Assembly: GCA_019058295.1 (NCBI GenBank)
Contig: JAHPZI010000028.1
Coordinates: 128,001 to 192,000 of the forward strand
DNA length: 64,000 nucleotides
Direction of reading: 5' to 3'
Origin: Promethearchaeota archaeon
Lineage (GTDB): Archaea > Asgardarchaeota > Lokiarchaeia > Sigyniarchaeales > SOKP01
How positions within the stretch are numbered: the stretch's first letter is position 1; each line of letters opens with the position of its first letter. Below, one piece after another: positions 2,510 through 39,746 of the stretch. Under the pieces are notes generated by a model. It did not search any database and was not told where the DNA came from. It worked only from the letters and a program-made list of their open reading frames with translations. The translations under genes were made by a program, and so were the position numbers.

Positions 2510-2623
2510 TGATTTTTACCTTTCTAATAAAATAATAATAATTTAAATTTCATAATATTTATATATTTACAAATTTGAAAAATAAATATATAAACTGATT
2601 AGAGTCTTAATTCAAAAAAACAA

Positions 2624-2839
2624 GTGATTATTATAACTAAAATTTCAACGTATATAGGAATTGTTTTGATTTTAATTGGAACTATGATAGCATTTTTGGG
2701 TATTACTCTTATATTTTTTAATTTATATCTTATAATAATTCCTGGTTTTCCCACGATTGTAACAGCTTATGCTGAACTGTCTATCGGATTCGCTATTATC
2801 GCTTTAGGTATAATTTTAATGATATTTATAAAGAAATAA
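2624..2839 (+). CDS. Small two-TM membrane protein
   Basis: 71 aa, two hydrophobic helices, basic C-terminus. Confidence 0.65.
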   Translation: MIIITKISTYIGIVLILIGTMIAFLGITLIFFNLYLIIIPGFPTIVTAYAELSIGFAIIALGIILMIFIKK

Positions 2840-2930
2840 ATGTCAAGGTTGCTTAAAGTGTGAAAGCAATCAAACCAATAAAATTCGATGGTTAGACATA
2901 GTTTTAAAATTATCTTTCTTCTCTTTAGCT

Positions 2931-3356
2931 CTAAACTACTGTTAATCCTATAATTAATAAAGAGATTATTATAAATATTATAAAACCAACAATCAGTCCA
3001 ATTATCAATAAATAAACCAAAATTTTAATGACAAACAATAGAGATACAATGTATTCTTGCTTGTAAAGTTTTGAAGCTAAAAATGAGCCTATAAATATAT
3101 GTATCAAGAAGGAAATTATGAAAGCAAGAAATATACCGTAAGCTATGAAATTGAAAATTGTATAGAATATTATATTTATACCTAACCAAAGGATATTTAG
3201 TATAATAGCTGGTTTGTAGGACTCATCCAGATTTTTCCTTGCGGCAATCCATTTTGTAATAAAAATTCCTATTATAAAGATTATTATTGAAGCGATTATT
3301 ATTATAATGGAGTCAAAAATAATATTCCCTGTAATAAATGCACCTTGCTCAATCAT
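2931..3356 (-). CDS. Hypothetical 4-TM membrane protein
   Basis: Four hydrophobic segments; start overlaps the afpA stop (ATGA, 3353-3356). Confidence 0.75.
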   Translation of the reverse strand: MIEQGAFITGNIIFDSIIIIIASIIIFIIGIFITKWIAARKNLDESYKPAIILNILWLGINIIFYTIFNFIAYGIFLAFIISFLIHIFIGSFLASKLYKQEYIVSLLFVIKILVYLLIIGLIVGFIIFIIISLLIIGLTVV

Positions 3357-3904
3357 TTTTCCAATTTTTGTAAAATAATACGTTTTATTTCTGAAAAATC
3401 TGAAATTACAATAATCCCTTCCATTTTTTTTAATTTATTGACGTTTTCAATTTCAATATCCCTGATCTTCAGAATTAAAGGGCTCCCATCTGGTCTGGAG
3501 GTTACGATTGGTTCCAAATGTTGATCTGATGGAAATAAATAGACTATTACACCACCCTTTATTGCTTGGGCAACACAATTCGTAATTAAGGTATCAGCAA
3601 TTCCATAGACAATTTTAGCTACGGAGTTAGCAGACACAGGGCAAACCAAGAAAAGTTCATACTTTCCTAGCTGTAGTGGTCCGGCAAGAAATGGATTATT
3701 CGGTGTCTTTTCAACTTTTACTTTCTTTACAACTTCATTCAAATACTCCCATTGTTTATACCACTTAACTACCACAGCTCCTTCTTTTGAGAGCATAACA
3801 GTTATATCAATTTGCTCCCTGAATTCATTCTGTAGAGCTTTCATTAAATCTATAGATTCTTTTATAAGATAACCAGTTCCACATATCCCCCAAATGAGTT
3901 TCAT
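3353..3904 (-). CDS. afpA: Archaeoflavoprotein AfpA (HFCD flavoprotein family)
   Basis: IWGICGTG, LSKEGAVVVKWYK, PFLAGPLQLGKY and PVSANSVAKIVYGIADTLITN match AfpA family motifs. Confidence 0.85.
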   Translation of the reverse strand: MKLIWGICGTGYLIKESIDLMKALQNEFREQIDITVMLSKEGAVVVKWYKQWEYLNEVVKKVKVEKTPNNPFLAGPLQLGKYELFLVCPVSANSVAKIVYGIADTLITNCVAQAIKGGVIVYLFPSDQHLEPIVTSRPDGSPLILKIRDIEIENVNKLKKMEGIIVISDFSEIKRIILQKLEK

Positions 3905-33822: not shown

Positions 33823-34722
33823 TTATATATTAATTTTATCCTTTTTGTCTTCTTCAATATTAATTTCATGCTCAACGCTTATTGCCTGCTCATCATCAAC
33901 AATACTCTTTGTTATATGTTTCACTCCACCTAGCTTATTTGGTTTCAGTTTTATGCAAGGAATACCAAAGTAAATCCATTCTGGTTCTAAGAATTGACTA
34001 AAAACTGTAGCAGAAAGTGCGCCTAACAATGAATCCTTTCCTATAATAGTTCCTGGTGAGACACAAGCCATTCCTCCAACAACTGTATAATCGCTAAATA
34101 TTATTTCTTTGATAATAAGGTACTTTCCAACAACCATTGAACTCATGACTACAGCACCTTGTCCAACCAAAACTTTCCGTCCAAATTTTATGAACTCCAT
34201 ATCACACCAAGAATCTTGGAGATGACTCGAAAAATCCATTTTCACTCCAAACCATCGGAAAGCTAATGTATCAATCCACGGTAAAGGACAATTTCTCACA
34301 AACCACATCACTAATTTTTTTAATTCGGTTCTCATACACCAGAACTCAAAGTCTTGGTCCCCTTTCTGAGCTAAAAATATACCTTCTTTTGGTTTATGAA
34401 TAAGATTTATTAAAACTAAAAAAAGCTTACTAAAAAATATGCATCCCAAAATAAAAATAAACAACATAGAGAATATTGCGATTGGTAAGAATAAAATAGG
34501 AAAAAGATATACTGTCCAATCATCTGTTATCAGATATAAAAGCCTGAAATATTCATATAAATATATTCCAACTAATAACCCGCTAAACCAGAAAATTGGA
34601 ATATATATTATAAGAATTTTACTACTAACTCTACTAATTGCGCTACTAGTTTGGAAATCAAGCGCATATTCCTTCTTATCTGTATTTCCTTTATCTGATG
34701 TTTCAATTATCTTTTCAGTCAT
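33823..34722 (-). CDS. 2TM + left-handed beta-helix protein, paralog 2
   Basis: Two TMs, HKPKEGIF, FEFW, FGVK, hexapeptide repeats, YFGIP. Confidence 0.85.
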   Translation of the reverse strand: MTEKIIETSDKGNTDKKEYALDFQTSSAISRVSSKILIIYIPIFWFSGLLVGIYLYEYFRLLYLITDDWTVYLFPILFLPIAIFSMLFIFILGCIFFSKLFLVLINLIHKPKEGIFLAQKGDQDFEFWCMRTELKKLVMWFVRNCPLPWIDTLAFRWFGVKMDFSSHLQDSWCDMEFIKFGRKVLVGQGAVVMSSMVVGKYLIIKEIIFSDYTVVGGMACVSPGTIIGKDSLLGALSATVFSQFLEPEWIYFGIPCIKLKPNKLGGVKHITKSIVDDEQAISVEHEINIEEDKKDKINI

Positions 34723-34731
34723 TTGTTTATT

Positions 34732-35631
34732 TTATAAGTTTTCTTCTATATCATTGATTTCTTTTAAATTCTTATTTTTCTCTAAATCTTCTTCAGATAT
34801 TTTCAAATAATTCATTACTTTTTTCGTAAAAATTTTACGGGCTGGAATACCAAAATAATAATTATTACCCTTCGTAATCTGTTTTTTCGCAAAGGCACCA
34901 AGTGGTAATAAATAAGAGTTATCTTTTATTTCACAACCAGGTCCAGCTATATTAAATGCGGCACCTGTAACATTATTTCCAATCTTTATTTCATAATAAG
35001 GAATTCTTCCAAATATACCCTCGACTGCATGAGAACATATTGCTGAATTAACTCCTATATAACAGTTCTCCCCAACATCAATATATTTATCAGCAACAAT
35101 CTCTTCTTCGATTGTTGTACCTTTCCCAATTTTACATGATCCTACAAAATTAAAGAACCAATTTGCTAACCATGGAAAAAGACCTTTAGTAAATGCATTT
35201 TTTCCATATTTTATTATAAATGATCGGATATGGTAATAATTCAATGTATCACTAGGGACAGTCCGGAGAATAATCCCATCTCGTGTAGGACACCTCCATT
35301 CTGTAAATCTCCAGAACACTCGAGTTAATAATGCTACAAAAAATAGATGTAAAAGGTAGCAACCAATTGAAATTAACGGCATTAAAGTTAACGCTAATAG
35401 GGGTTTAAGGTCTGTAAAAAGAGAGAAAAAATCATTGATATCCAAAAAGAAAGGTTTAAAAACTAAAAAAAAATATAACATGAAAACAATTCCGGGAAGG
35501 AAGTAAGATCCTAAATAAATAATAGCAAAAAAAGTTAAATAGAAGTGATATTGTAGGTTAATCTCTTGTTCTTTTTCGCCTTTTTTTTCTTCAGTATTAT
35601 TAATCTTTGGCTCTTCTTTCATATTAGCCAT
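34732..35631 (-). CDS. 2TM + left-handed beta-helix protein, paralog 1 (retains His in CSHAVEG)
   Basis: Two TMs, PTRDGII, CKIGKGTTI, ICSHAVEG, YFGIPAR. Confidence 0.85.
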   Translation of the reverse strand: MANMKEEPKINNTEEKKGEKEQEINLQYHFYLTFFAIIYLGSYFLPGIVFMLYFFLVFKPFFLDINDFFSLFTDLKPLLALTLMPLISIGCYLLHLFFVALLTRVFWRFTEWRCPTRDGIILRTVPSDTLNYYHIRSFIIKYGKNAFTKGLFPWLANWFFNFVGSCKIGKGTTIEEEIVADKYIDVGENCYIGVNSAICSHAVEGIFGRIPYYEIKIGNNVTGAAFNIAGPGCEIKDNSYLLPLGAFAKKQITKGNNYYFGIPARKIFTKKVMNYLKISEEDLEKNKNLKEINDIEENL

Positions 35632-35751
35632 TTTATGTCCTTTTTATAAAGAATGCTAATTTATTATAGTTTTTAATATTTTAATAGATAGTTTTTCCAA
35701 GTATTAATTTTTGACGATTATTTCTATAATAATATTTATCTACTTATGATT

Positions 35752-35918
35752 TTATCTATTAGAATCCATATACCCTTTTATATATTTATAAATTTCTTCA
35801 GCAGGTTGAAATACTCCAAAATGCCCTTCGCATAAAATATCTGCTTTTACATCAAGCAGTTTTTGCATTGATTTTTGATAATCGCCTTTATTAGAACCAA
35901 AACTTTTCATAAATGGAC
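35752..35918 (-). pseudogene. Orphan 3' end of an MBL-hydrolase gene (duplicate of the last ~55 codons of 37445..38119)
   Basis: PFMKSFGSNKGDYQKSMQKLLDVKADILCEGHFGVFQPAEEIYKYI vs PFMKSFSSNLYDYQNSMQKILDLNADILCEGHFGIFQPAEQVKKYI: 35/46 identical by manual count. Similarity stops abruptly at 35918. Confidence 0.9.
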
Positions 35919-37620
35919 AATAGATAGGTTTTATTCTATAAAGAAAATAATATATTAAAGGAATTATTTTTATCAAATATTTTCATTTTTTGGCCCATAT
36001 ACTTTTCTTAATAAATTAAAGATCTCATATTTAGTATTAAGTTTTTTAATCGTATTCTTAACAAGTGGATCAGTTATAAATAAATTTTTAAAAAAAATTG
36101 TTGCATGTTTTTCAAAACCTTTTAACCCAAACTCCTTAGAATATATTGTATACAGAGAAACTCCATTTCTAAGAAGATCTTTGACTCTTTTATAACGATT
36201 CTCTTTTATTAAGAATGCCTCTGGTTTTAACTTAATATTCCATTTTGATAGATAATTATTTAAAGTTCCTTTAGCAATTGAAAATTTGAAAATTTTGAAA
36301 TGTAGTTTAATTAAATCCTCTATTCTCGTATTTGGATTTTGGAGAATAATATTTTTCAATTGAAGTTTTGTCCACATCATCTTACGTCTCTTTAATCCTG
36401 CCCATGAAGAAGATTTATATCTCAATCTTTTTCTCTCTAGACTATTTTCATAATTATCAAGTAATTTATTAAACAATTCACCGCCTAATGTGAGATAATA
36501 TCCAATTAATTTATTATTTGAAAAATGAAGTTTGGGAACTTTTTTTAATTCGAATTCATAAATAATATCTTTTAAAAATCTTTTACTTTTAATTGTTCCA
36601 ATTCTAGGTGCTCCCCCTGAATGAGTTCCATCTCCATCAAAAAATCCAAGCAAACAACTCATAGACAAATTAGTATTATTAAATCTCGGAAAGAGAATCA
36701 AATTTGACTTTTTTCCTATAGGGAATCCATGAGTATATAAATATTTTCCAAATAAATTACCAGAAATCCTAAACGAGAATGTATATGAATAATTTAAACT
36801 AAATTCATTAGGAGGTTTTCTTGTAAAATCAACATTTCTTGGAGAAAGCCCAATTGCTTGAATAAATCGTTTAATTAAAATTCCATCTTTAACTCCAATT
36901 TCTACTGACAATTCATACTTCCTACGGTGCATTCTAAGATGTCCTTCTGCTAATAGCCAACCATACCAATATGCCTTCTCTTTAATATCAATATTTTGAA
37001 AATAATTATCAATTAAATTAGGATTTTTTTGATTATATTGACCAGAATGGAAATTATGATATTTTACAAAATATGTATTTAATTTATCAAAATTTTTCTT
37101 TAATTTTAGTTTAAGCGCTCTTGTATAAGAATTTAAAGTTTGTGTAGAAAGAAAATAATCAGGATTTCTTTTCGATTTAAGTATTAAATCATTGATATAC
37201 CATTTACTTTTTTTCATTAAATAATTAGTTGATAAAAAATGATAATTTATTATTTTATTATCTAAGGAATTAATTACATTTTTAATATCCCAAAAGAATT
37301 CACGAATAGAATAAATAGGATTCACATCAGCAATATAATGTAGTTAAATTAGTCAAGTTTATTCAAGATATTCTCTCTTGAAAATAATTTAGAGATACTT
37401 AATTTATTAATTTGTTTTAATTATGTTATAATCATAAAATAATTTCAGCTTTTAGGTTGATTTAATTTTTTATGTTGCATTATATATTTCTTTACTTGCT
37501 CAGCAGGTTGAAAGATGCCAAAATGTCCTTCACACAGAATATCTGCGTTTAGATCTAGTATTTTTTGCATTGAATTCTGATAATCATATAAATTTGAACT
37601 AAAACTTTTCATAAAAGGAC
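35919..37620 (-). mobile_element. Putative homing element of ~1.7 kb: replacement 3' end of the host gene plus free-standing LAGLIDADG gene
   Basis: Bounded by the two diverged copies of the host 3' end, both beginning GTCC(T/A)TTTATGAAAAGTTTT on the minus strand. The boundary is inferred. Confidence 0.7.
35973..37325 (-). CDS. Free-standing double-motif LAGLIDADG endonuclease with N- and C-terminal extensions
   Basis: YFQNIDIKEKAYWYGWLLAEG (motif 1), GFPIGKKS, CLLGFFDGDG (motif 2), LERKR; highly basic; own GTG start and TGA stop. Confidence 0.88.
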   Translation of the reverse strand: MNPIYSIREFFWDIKNVINSLDNKIINYHFLSTNYLMKKSKWYINDLILKSKRNPDYFLSTQTLNSYTRALKLKLKKNFDKLNTYFVKYHNFHSGQYNQKNPNLIDNYFQNIDIKEKAYWYGWLLAEGHLRMHRRKYELSVEIGVKDGILIKRFIQAIGLSPRNVDFTRKPPNEFSLNYSYTFSFRISGNLFGKYLYTHGFPIGKKSNLILFPRFNNTNLSMSCLLGFFDGDGTHSGGAPRIGTIKSKRFLKDIIYEFELKKVPKLHFSNNKLIGYYLTLGGELFNKLLDNYENSLERKRLRYKSSSWAGLKRRKMMWTKLQLKNIILQNPNTRIEDLIKLHFKIFKFSIAKGTLNNYLSKWNIKLKPEAFLIKENRYKRVKDLLRNGVSLYTIYSKEFGLKGFEKHATIFFKNLFITDPLVKNTIKKLNTKYEIFNLLRKVYGPKNENI

Positions 37621-38119
37621 CGTGAAGATCTTGGGCAAAAAGAATTTTAGTATCCTCAATTTCTACCAACACAGAAATGGATCCAGGAGTGTGGCCGGGG
37701 GTATGAATACATTGAAATTCATAATCACCCAATTTTAAGATCTCAATATCTTTAGTAAATCTCTGGTGTAATTTTATTGGTTTATAATCAACACCATACC
37801 AAGATGCAGCAGTTTTACGATCATATCCTTTTTGTTCAATAGCATCAGCATCTAAATCGTGAGCGTAAAATTTCATATTCTCATTAAGTGAAACTTTTAA
37901 TTCATAGCAGATAGCAATATGATCTATATGGCAATGTGTTAGAATGCAATGTTTTATGTTTTTTGGACTTAATCCAAAACTATTGATATTTTTTACTATT
38001 AAATAAATATTCATCCCAGAATCAATTAAAACAAGACCATCATCACTATTTGTATCCACTAAATATACAGAACAACCAGAATCTCCTAAATGGTACACAT
38101 TTTTAAATATTTTTTTCAT
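37445..38119 (-). CDS. MBL-fold metallo-hydrolase (glyoxalase II-like)
   Basis: LIDSG, THCHIDH, HTPGHTPGS, FAQDLHG, CEGH. Confidence 0.92.
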   Translation of the reverse strand: MKKIFKNVYHLGDSGCSVYLVDTNSDDGLVLIDSGMNIYLIVKNINSFGLSPKNIKHCILTHCHIDHIAICYELKVSLNENMKFYAHDLDADAIEQKGYDRKTAASWYGVDYKPIKLHQRFTKDIEILKLGDYEFQCIHTPGHTPGSISVLVEIEDTKILFAQDLHGPFMKSFSSNLYDYQNSMQKILDLNADILCEGHFGIFQPAEQVKKYIMQHKKLNQPKS

Positions 38120-38129
38120 TTCGATTAAA

Positions 38130-39746
38130 TTAAAGGATTTTTTCTCTTAAAGTTTTTACATCTATATTTTTTAACTTTTTATAGAATCGGATGAAAATTA
38201 AATAAACTCCGAAAGACCAAATAATCCAAGAAAAAACCTGCCCCCTATCAAGATTTAAGAGATAATTGATAAAATTGTCAGCTTTACCTAAACCAAAAAA
38301 GTCCAAAACATCATGAAATGGGTATTGAACCTCTATTCTTCTATGATTATCATTCATCGCTACTACTTCATGGTCGTTTCTCCTCAAATTTTTAAAGATA
38401 TTATCAACTGATTTATCCTTAGGATTTTTCAATCGGAGTTTAATAAATGTGTCTAATTCATTGCTTTTATGTTCATCGGTACCGGCAATGCATGTTAAAT
38501 TGTTATCTAAGCAAAATTCTCTTATTTTTTTGTCTTTAGGATTTCCTCCATTTACGATTTCGAATCCATCTACACCCCAATCCATTAACTGTTCAAGAGT
38601 ATAAGGAACACCTCTTCCATTTTCTTTTTCATTTTTTTCCGCGTTATAGTGGTTTACAAAGATATAACCTCCTTCTCGTTTAACATGTTTTATAGTGTCT
38701 TCGGCGTTCATTGATTTGAACGGGCATGTTGGTGCATCTGATTCTTTAGGAACAACTGTATGATCAAGACCGAAAATGTTCATGTGTATATCATTGTCAT
38801 GATCAGTCCACTCTTCTGCAATAATAACGGTAAAATCTAAATCGTATTCTTTAACAAATTTTCTTGCTACCTTTGCACCTCTTTGATTATCATGATCCGA
38901 AAAGGCAGCTCCCGAAATCCCTTGTTCTATATACCACATTACTCTTTCTTCGGGTGTCAAATATCCATCAGAATATATTGTGTGCACATGAAAATCAAAA
39001 AGAAATTCATCATGATCGAGGTCAGTTTCGATCTCTTGAGTGGGCCACTTAAATGATACTAAAATCACGCTCAGTCCAAGCATTAAAAAGATAAACCCGG
39101 CACAATATGCCAAATGCTTTTTGAATTCGTTAGCGTTGTGATTTTTTTTTTCTTTTTTCTTGAATTTTTCTGAATAATTAAATTTATATTCAGGATTCCG
39201 GTATTTTGCCAGAATATATCCTCCTTTAAGAGCAACCAGAGTCAATCCAATAGGGACGAAAAGTTGTACTAAAAACATAAAATAAAGGTTAACAAAGTAG
39301 AACCCAATAAAAATATAAGCGAACAATAAAAACAACATACAACAGGCCACCCCTCCTCCAATTATAATACCTATAAATCTTAAAAAATCTCTGAGAGGAT
39401 AAATTAACAACTGTGCTTTTTCCGAAGGCTCAAACCCTCGCTTTTTTTTAACATAAAAGCGGTATATAACCTGTATAATGATATAAGATATTATAAATCC
39501 AGAAATCCAATTAAAATCGACTGAAAATACAAAAGTAATTCCTATAATTGGTTCAAAAAAATATCTTAAAAGCGGGATTTGAGAATCATATTTCGGGGAA
39601 ACATTCTTTCCATCAATCAAGTCATAAAAAGTAACTTTACGCTGAGCAAATATAGCTAATATTATCAGACAGATAATCCAAACTAAAAAAACCCTCTGAA
39701 CAAACTTTAAAAATTTAGATTTGTTTTGATAGTTTGTATTTTTCAT
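38130..39746 (-). CDS. Multi-pass membrane protein with PHP phosphoesterase domain
   Basis: N-terminal TMs; DFHVHTIYSDG, FSDHD, EEWT, VNH, GFEIVN, GTDEH; C-terminal TM. Confidence 0.85.
   Translation of the reverse strand: MKNTNYQNKSKFLKFVQRVFLVWIICLIILAIFAQRKVTFYDLIDGKNVSPKYDSQIPLLRYFFEPIIGITFVFSVDFNWISGFIISYIIIQVIYRFYVKKKRGFEPSEKAQLLIYPLRDFLRFIGIIIGGGVACCMLFLLFAYIFIGFYFVNLYFMFLVQLFVPIGLTLVALKGGYILAKYRNPEYKFNYSEKFKKKEKKNHNANEFKKHLAYCAGFIFLMLGLSVILVSFKWPTQEIETDLDHDEFLFDFHVHTIYSDGYLTPEERVMWYIEQGISGAAFSDHDNQRGAKVARKFVKEYDLDFTVIIAEEWTDHDNDIHMNIFGLDHTVVPKESDAPTCPFKSMNAEDTIKHVKREGGYIFVNHYNAEKNEKENGRGVPYTLEQLMDWGVDGFEIVNGGNPKDKKIREFCLDNNLTCIAGTDEHKSNELDTFIKLRLKNPKDKSVDNIFKNLRRNDHEVVAMNDNHRRIEVQYPFHDVLDFFGLGKADNFINYLLNLDRGQVFSWIIWSFGVYLIFIRFYKKLKNIDVKTLREKIL

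Follow-up and report, generated by a model that had tools for sequence, protein, structure and literature searches.

A free-standing LAGLIDADG endonuclease gene that probably travels with a spare end of its target gene in a Promethearchaeota chromosome

How can a free-standing homing endonuclease gene occupy a conserved chromosomal gene when neither an intron nor an intein seems to shelter it? LAGLIDADG homing endonucleases cleave specific targets of 14-40 bp and leave 4-nt 3′ overhangs, and homing endonucleases are thought to persist in essential or conserved genes only inside self-splicing introns or inteins. The question is raised by a locus of a Promethearchaeota archaeon (assembly GCA_019058295.1), in the window analysed here, that is, the whole stretch of 64,000 nt at positions 128,001 to 192,000 of contig JAHPZI010000028.1. 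The locus contains, in transcription order, an intact gene for a metallo-β-lactamase (MBL)-fold hydrolase, a 119-bp spacer, a LAGLIDADG open reading frame (ORF) of 450 amino acids, 54 bp, and a second copy of the MBL gene tail, hereafter called the orphan. The MBL gene, the endonuclease gene and the orphan all lie on the minus strand, and coordinates are given as window positions. An earlier reading made from the letters alone (the sequence-only reading) had described this layout with a gap of ~55 bp before the orphan, and every element was found where it had been placed. As set out below, the locus is very probably a gene-end-replacing homing cassette, in which a free-standing LAGLIDADG gene moves together with a duplicate of its target's last ~57 codons.

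The evidence that carries this reading comes from two genomes of the same genus, G007 and G005, both of which carry an uninterrupted (empty) MBL allele. Both are collinear with the window on either flank, join position 37621 directly to position 35918, and lack the endonuclease gene. In the nearest genomes the MBL gene is single-copy at the locus (one match each in G007, G005, G002 and G006), and the endonuclease gene was found in none of 28 MBL ortholog loci. At the nucleotide level, the 5′ part of the window gene is 94.8% identical to G007 and 95.4% to G005. The orphan follows the same pattern (95.7% and 91.4%) and ends, like the G007 and G005 orthologs, in ...KGYMDSNR, while the tail inside the gene is only 75.3% and 70.4% identical to them. 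This is the outcome that the sequence-only reading had predicted for empty alleles, and two of the results that it had named as fatal to itself did not appear: the relatives have one MBL copy instead of tandem paralogs, and it is the orphan that the empty allele resembles.

Separate trees of the two parts of the gene, which the same reading had proposed, led to a similar picture. The 5′ part of the window gene grouped with G007 and G005, and in the tail tree the orphan clustered with G005 and G007 (91/97; 97/90*). The in-gene tail fell outside the genus clade, without a resolved placement, on a branch ~10 times longer, and its path length to G007 was ~0.72 vs 0.06 for the orphan. Synonymous divergence (dS) from the native tails was 1.0-1.4 for the in-gene tail, compared with 0.16-0.20 for the 5′ part, and the ratio of nonsynonymous to synonymous divergence (dN/dS) of the in-gene tail was 0.12-0.20. 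Because dS is so much higher in the in-gene tail than in the 5′ part and dN/dS is low, this tail has a long history as coding sequence in a different lineage. An approximately unbiased (AU) test did not reject a tree in which the in-gene tail was held together with the orphan, G007 and G005 (p=0.46), a test based on 165 columns and on a clade that allows a long sister branch. Since the AU test is uninformative, the argument for a native orphan rests on the identities and on dS. Because the tails of the empty alleles match the orphan and not the in-gene tail, while the 5′ part is ~95% identical, the comparison indicates that the orphan is the native end and that a 1,702-bp insert brought in a foreign gene end together with the endonuclease gene, displacing the native end.

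Direct comparison of the two tails agreed with the sharp onset of homology that had been noticed at first sight. The alignment starts at the G of GTCC, at 37620 in one copy and 35918 in the other, and continues from there without gaps. A repeat search returned the two copies as a 141-nt direct repeat of 80% identity with a spacing of 1702 nt, and BLASTP aligned them with 36 of 59 residues identical (E=6e-25). Over the 54 comparable codons the copies share 67% of their amino acids and 74% of their nucleotides, with nine codons differing only synonymously, a dS of ~1.05 and a dN/dS of 0.20; the ~76% protein identity (35/46) given previously holds for the core PFMKSF..KYI and not for this whole length. 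The in-gene tail retains the last metal-ligand motif, CEGHFG, and for this reason the hybrid MBL gene, with its native 5′ part, its foreign 3′ end and all its metal ligands, looks functional. The orphan has no stop codon inside, as also reported from the first inspection, and no frameshift. Its frame is open for 74 codons (35752-35976, minus strand) from a TTG that overlaps the stop codon of the endonuclease gene, and it might conceivably yield a small peptide by translational coupling. The features of the locus are collected in Table 1.

Table 1. Positions of the features of the MBL locus (window coordinates) and of the DUF1848 locus on another contig of the same genome (contig coordinates)
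Feature	Position	Strand	Description and basis
MBL-fold hydrolase gene	37445-38119	-	224 aa; Pfam Lactamase_B, E=9.5e-16; stop codon 37445-37447
MBL 5′ part, native	37621-38119	-	codons 1-166, up to ..QDLH and the first base of Gly; Pfam Lactamase_B; same-genus orthologs, 5′-part tree
MBL 3′ end, foreign replacement	37445-37620	-	last 57 codons and stop, in frame with the gene; identities, dS, tail tree
AT-rich spacer, MBL stop to endonuclease start	37326-37444	-	119 bp; part of the insert; missing from empty alleles
Free-standing double-motif LAGLIDADG gene	35973-37325	-	450 aa; ORF missing from empty alleles
3′ terminus of the insert	35919-35972	-	54 bp; no counterpart in empty alleles, homology to them restarts at 35918
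Orphan, displaced native MBL 3′ end	35752-35918	-	55 codons and stop; runs on into the native downstream flank
Whole insert	35919-37620	-	1,702 bp; replacement gene end, spacer, endonuclease gene and terminus
DUF1848 locus L002, orphan	828-1031 (contig C10)	+	
DUF1848 locus L002, endonuclease gene	1195-2469 (contig C10)	+	
DUF1848 locus L002, DUF1848 gene	2565-3455 (contig C10)	+	

The 450-aa ORF is predicted to encode a two-motif, monomeric LAGLIDADG homing endonuclease. It contains the motifs ..YGWLLAEG.. and ..LLGFFDGDG.., and an alignment of 13 homologs revealed two conserved motifs with the consensus sequences KAYWLGWLFAEG and LAFLLGxFDGDG, whose acidic residues are kept in all 13. A profile built from this alignment had its best match in the archaeal intron endonuclease I-Tsp061I (2dch), with E=2e-5. 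The AlphaFold (AF2) model of the protein (mean confidence score, pLDDT, 85.4) shows the expected order of strands and helices over residues 115-291 and has the pseudo-dimeric alpha-beta-beta-alpha-beta-beta-alpha fold. All of the ~40 PDB matches listed by Foldseek have the LAGLIDADG fold, with probability 1.00; among the matches listed are the bI3 maturase, I-AniI, I-Tsp061I, I-SceI, I-DmoI, PI-PfuI, endonuclease-bearing inteins and two WhiA chains. According to the alignment and the model, the endonuclease core spans approximately residues 115-300 and is framed by helical extensions at residues 1-110 and 320-450, the C-terminal one resembling a helix-turn-helix (HTH).

The usual shelters of such an enzyme were examined in turn. 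No Rfam match was obtained at E<=1 in 35300-38500, a search that bears on introns with an Rfam model, which bulge-helix-bulge (BHB) introns do not have, the BHB structure itself not having been searched directly. No Hint or intein Pfam domain was found at the locus, and the MBL ORF stops 119 bp before the endonuclease gene. Because there is no Rfam match, the MBL gene has its own stop codon and a Hint domain is missing, the endonuclease gene lies neither in an intron recognised by Rfam nor in an intein. An intein was rejected on account of the MBL stop ahead of the endonuclease gene together with the lack of a Hint domain, and a group I, group II or BHB intron because the gene is complete without the orphan, which duplicates coding sequence rather than continuing the frame. 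A transposon or insertion sequence was likewise rejected: the only inverted repeats are AT-rich and of low identity, no long direct repeat is present other than the 141-nt gene tail, and no transposase domain scored above any Pfam threshold.

How, then, could the cassette have reached its present position? From the arrangement of the locus we infer cleavage at the MBL site, the pathway of repair, immunity of the occupied allele and expression, in the following order of events. The enzyme would make a double-strand break in the conserved coding site ..FGQD(I/L)HG|PF.. of an unoccupied MBL allele. The broken 5′ side would then invade an occupied donor allele, from which the gene end, the spacer and the endonuclease gene would be copied. 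In a first invasion of a distant lineage the copy would be joined non-homologously to the recipient's own distal end, giving the sharp 35919/35918 junction; in later homing it might instead anneal to the orphan copy of the donor, so that the orphan would serve as a homology arm in later rounds. The outcome would be a complete hybrid MBL gene and an endonuclease gene, with the original 3′ end of the recipient stranded downstream. Because such a cassette supplies the rest of the gene, no intron or intein would be needed. The presumed target, ..TTtGGaCAAGAtaTtCAtGG|tCCatTt.., is almost invariant in the 28 empty alleles, and the empty site of the G007/G005 type spans ..TTTGGACAAGACCTTCACGGTCCATTTATG...

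The same site is occupied in another genus. A 54-kb JGI metagenome contig (L095) carries an endonuclease gene whose product is 51% identical to that of the window, inserted at the same MBL site after HG. In this contig a 220-aa MBL gene is followed by the endonuclease gene and by an orphan tail with an identical starting codon position and a frameshift at its beginning. Compared with the tail of the empty allele in G033, which belongs to another genus than the window, the L095 orphan is 92% identical in nucleotides and the in-gene tail 72%, and the flanks of L095 are 94.5% and 97.2% identical to G033. These values indicate that L095 carries a second MBL allele in which this site became occupied independently. 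The closest database homolog of the window endonuclease, 92% identical, comes from a Logan contig of 1.8 kb, where a gene end lies 125 bp upstream of it.

Relatives of the enzyme are widespread. The survey yielded ~170 matches in all, and the endonuclease family is present in 82 of the 400 phylum genomes and in 75 of the 134 from the family to which the window belongs, often in several copies and some with internal stops. The sequence-only reading had suggested looking for duplicated gene ends beside such homologs. We examined 71 loci, 70 of them evaluable; at 15 of these 70 loci, which were picked by best score rather than at random and include kin that are not independent, the endonuclease gene is flanked by two copies of a gene end. 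The duplicated ends belong to at least nine host genes: MBL in the window, DUF1848 (at its 5′ end) on another contig of the window's own genome, an SNF2 helicase in two genera, a phosphoglucomutase/phosphomannomutase (PGM/PMM) gene in two genomes, a radical-SAM enzyme in two genera, an AMP-binding-like gene in two genera, a P-type ATPase and a TFS-like zinc ribbon at one locus each, and an unnamed small tail in three genomes. Across the family the endonuclease gene may be sense or antisense to the host gene.

At the SNF2 loci the duplication begins at helicase motif VI. Same-genus empty alleles match the orphan over its full length (88% and 81% identity), whereas the in-gene tail aligns with them only over its first 41-57 residues (78% and 64%). 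Between the two genera the endonucleases are 77% identical, compared with 61% for the host gene and 51% for the next gene. In a tree of 31 endonuclease sequences each target group formed one starred clade, and the distribution of targets required nine changes for ten groups, a value matched by none of 200 shuffles. This result shows that the endonuclease lineages are target-specific; together with the occupation of the same MBL site in two genera, it lends indirect support to the proposed cleavage of the empty allele. At the DUF1848 locus of G007 the endonuclease gene is cut down to its last 65 codons, and such decayed copies, like those with internal stops, fit the life cycle expected of a homing endonuclease.

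Several findings weigh against a homing cassette, or against the orphan as a general mark of the native end. The sequence-only reading proposed that the incoming 3′ end alters the cut site, but the junction inside the MBL gene differs from the empty site of G007 at only 2 of 29 bases, and so small a difference does not readily account for how the host would avoid self-cutting; we found no clear sequence difference at the junction that would make the occupied allele immune. The sole recurrent change in both occupied alleles affects the Gly codon of FGQD, 15-17 nt upstream, which reads GCC in one and CCT in the other. As regards upstream co-conversion, six of the eight window-specific changes in the 5′ part fall within its last 130 nt, and the same clustering is seen in G007 and G005, so that no conversion tract could be made out. 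The search for a donor was unsuccessful: the nearest tails show 77-83% identity, and none of the 135 family genomes contains a DNA copy of the element; in them the DNA of the whole insert matched only in the conserved part of the MBL tail (at most 83%) and weakly in the endonuclease. In IMG/VR the LAGLIDADG relatives are all distant, with identities of 36% or less across a portion of the core, and nothing points to a virus as carrier. Pfam PF14528 (LAGLIDADG_3) gave the window protein 13.6 bits, below the cut-off of 22.5 bits, and gave its homologs 24.7-34.7 bits, above it; the LAGLIDADG assignment made in the sequence-only reading is therefore not given by Pfam alone and depends on the profile match to 2dch and on the fold.

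The PGM/PMM loci belong to the same side of the balance. Both of them, L131 in G033 and L134 in G026, consist of a PGM/PMM gene, an antisense endonuclease gene and an orphan tail, and their polarity is opposite to that of the MBL and SNF2 loci. In same-genus empty alleles (G016, G185) the tail is of the in-gene type, ~90% identical in amino acids, and the orphan is the divergent copy (65-78%), so that the rule by which the orphan is the native end is not universal. A recent first invasion was rejected for these loci on the strength of the in-gene-type tail in the empty alleles. The arrangement fits an older insertion that was followed by loss through recombination between the two tails; alternatively, it fits an old orphan carried over during homing between close relatives.

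One of these difficulties disappears if the protein does not cut at all. The gene end and the LAGLIDADG gene could have been acquired through horizontal transfer of the ordinary kind, with homologous or illegitimate recombination, the protein being a passive passenger or a domesticated DNA-binding protein of the WhiA or maturase type. WhiA and maturases are indeed among the fold matches, the C-terminal extension is HTH-like, and a junction nearly identical to the empty site poses no problem for a protein that does not cleave. We nevertheless regard this explanation as unlikely: both catalytic acidic residues are kept in 13 of 13 aligned homologs, diverged homologs occupy one and the same site in two genera, the endonuclease clades are strictly target-specific, the SNF2 element is better conserved than the SNF2 host gene, and pseudogenised or truncated copies are typical of selfish nucleases and not of a host regulator. 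It is very improbable that the layout is an assembly artefact, a chimeric contig in which the MBL alleles of two strains were joined via an unrelated endonuclease contig. The genome is a metagenome bin, 79% complete and in 30 contigs, which makes such an error conceivable, but the tails are only 74-80% identical and thus too divergent for an assembler to mix up, the JGI contig of another genus, an independent assembly, shows the same architecture, the Logan contig carries a gene end 125 bp upstream of a 92%-identical endonuclease, and analogous layouts occur at 15 loci of other genomes. Least probable by our estimate, and barely credible, is an origin from two MBL paralogs in tandem, in which a deletion removed the 5′ part of the downstream paralog as the endonuclease gene came in and left the orphan as its remnant, since two similar tails do stand in tandem 1.7 kb apart but near relatives have a single MBL copy at the locus, the vertical signal lies in the orphan and not in the in-gene tail, and the orphan begins exactly where the in-gene homology begins.

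A gene-end-replacing homing cassette has precedents in fungal mitochondria. Mobile endonuclease ORFs (mORFs) with a foreign C-terminus have been described in atp6 of Allomyces macrogynus, in atp6, atp9, cox2 and nad3 of Glomus sp., in atp9 of Rhizopus and in cox2 of Mortierella, and in Glomus atp6 the native copy is 91% identical in nucleotides to close relatives and the two copies are 63.5% identical to each other (PMC3630166). The order is the same as at the MBL locus, namely host gene core, foreign C-terminus, LAGLIDADG (or GIY-YIG) ORF and, downstream, the native C-terminus. In both cases the native copy matches close relatives and the two copies are strongly diverged (63.5% in Glomus atp6 and 74% at the MBL locus), the donor has not been pinned down, and neither an intron nor an intein is involved. 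Three features that characterise an mORF cassette are present at the MBL locus: two flanking copies of the 3′ end, the upstream one in frame and the downstream one native, and empty alleles in relatives. Unlike the fungal elements, the MBL cassette resides in an archaeal chromosome and in a non-organellar, non-respiratory gene, its endonuclease is a member of a subfamily that is specific to Promethearchaeota and has helical extensions at both the N- and the C-terminus, and the archaeal family includes endonuclease genes in sense or antisense orientation as well as a version at the 5′ end (DUF1848). In Glomus atp6 the endonuclease ORF and the gene are in phase, whereas in the MBL cassette it is separate, behind a stop codon and the 119-bp spacer.

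Free-standing endonucleases are also known from T-even phages, where the Seg and Mob enzymes, such as MobE, carry out 'intronless homing' (PMC2790892). They resemble the MBL cassette in that a free-standing gene lies beside or inside a conserved gene and that a double-strand break is followed by gene conversion which drags flanking DNA along. They differ in that they are usually intergenic and do not produce a duplicated gene end, belong to the GIY-YIG or HNH families rather than to LAGLIDADG, and inhabit phage genomes rather than cellular chromosomes. A mobA-gene 60 cassette of T-even phages was reportedly described by Bonocora and co-workers in 2011. Some relatives of the window endonuclease show the phage arrangement without a duplication (L096, L098 and L100). 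These three and L097 and L099, on five metagenome or MAG contigs, form a clade of 38-40%-identical endonucleases that are convergent with, and just downstream of, the gamma gene of pyruvate:ferredoxin oxidoreductase (POR), and an endonuclease on one further JGI contig was placed with them by gene order only, outside the tree. No duplicated gene end was detectable at these POR-gamma-adjacent loci, which by analogy look like phage-style intronless homing.

Archaeal LAGLIDADG enzymes of rRNA introns and inteins (I-Tsp061I (2dch), I-DmoI and PI-PfuI) share the fold and the two-motif monomer design with the window protein, but their host genes are kept working by RNA or protein splicing, whereas the MBL gene has its own stop codon. 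In 'fractured genes', a free-standing endonuclease gene lies between the halves of a gene split at an intein (PMC2677866). There too the endonuclease gene stands free within the territory of a conserved gene that functions without an intron; the difference is that the split gene is rejoined by protein splicing in trans, while the MBL gene is complete and the native end remains as a redundant extra. A literature search of partial coverage returned no description of a gene-end-replacing cassette in archaea.

Taken together, the sequence comparisons point to what appears to be a known kind of element, with its precedent in fungal mitochondria, in a new domain of hosts and seemingly common in Promethearchaeota. 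The chances seem to us evenly balanced for a broader statement, in which Promethearchaeota would possess a radiating family of LAGLIDADG 'home-and-rescue' cassettes that are target-specific, do without splicing and routinely substitute the ends of other lineages for those of ordinary chromosomal genes (MBL, SNF2, DUF1848, PGM, radical SAM, P-type ATPase, AMP-binding-like and TFS-like), the orphan acting as a second homology arm. If this is true, homing endonucleases would regularly give rise to mosaic genes and to fragments of genes in the archaea most closely related to eukaryotes. The spare-gene-end strategy has so far been published for fungal mitochondria, and its repeated occurrence in Asgard chromosomes would make it a general one and provide natural examples of a drive of the cleave-and-rescue type. 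It would also explain some of the orphan gene fragments and phylogenetically discordant (chimeric) gene ends in metagenome-assembled genomes of Promethearchaeota, which can mislead annotation and single-gene trees. For applications, the family would offer a set of new nucleases with long sites, whose targets can be read directly from empty and occupied alleles.

Other members of the endonuclease family depart from the MBL design in different ways. At the DUF1848 locus of the window's own genome (L002, Table 1), the 5′ DUF1848 fragment shares 88% identity with the N-terminus of a homolog from the same genus, and the complete DUF1848 gene is 40% identical to this homolog and 70-81% identical to genes in G003, G024 and G012. 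A simple swap of the 5′ end was rejected here, as the whole downstream gene is of the divergent, 40%-identical type. At five loci (L042, L045, L050, L052 and L055) the endonuclease domain forms the C-terminal third of open frames of 684 to >955 aa, whose N-terminal parts contain no Pfam domain and no intein blocks. By analogy with the in-phase Glomus atp6, these may be in-frame fusions to host genes. In genome G063, from another family of the phylum, highly similar repeats of 13-14 aa (as translated), such as ..CRGSSAWLERR.., flank the endonuclease gene at two loci (L146 and L148) and may be duplicated ends of RNA genes rather than of protein genes.

The neighbourhood of the MBL locus comprises, upstream, a gene for a PHP-domain membrane protein and, directly downstream of the orphan, two adjacent genes for paralogous membrane proteins of 299 aa with a weak hexapeptide-repeat match (33823-34722 and 34732-35631, both on the minus strand); the synteny of this pair is kept in G007 and G005. 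Finally, at the TFS-like locus (L051 in G015), a TFS/RpoM-like zinc-ribbon gene upstream of the endonuclease gene has an in-frame stop shortly ahead of its final CxxC, and across the endonuclease gene there is a second copy of ~17 terminal zinc-ribbon codons, so that this locus may be a decayed example of the gene-end-replacing design.

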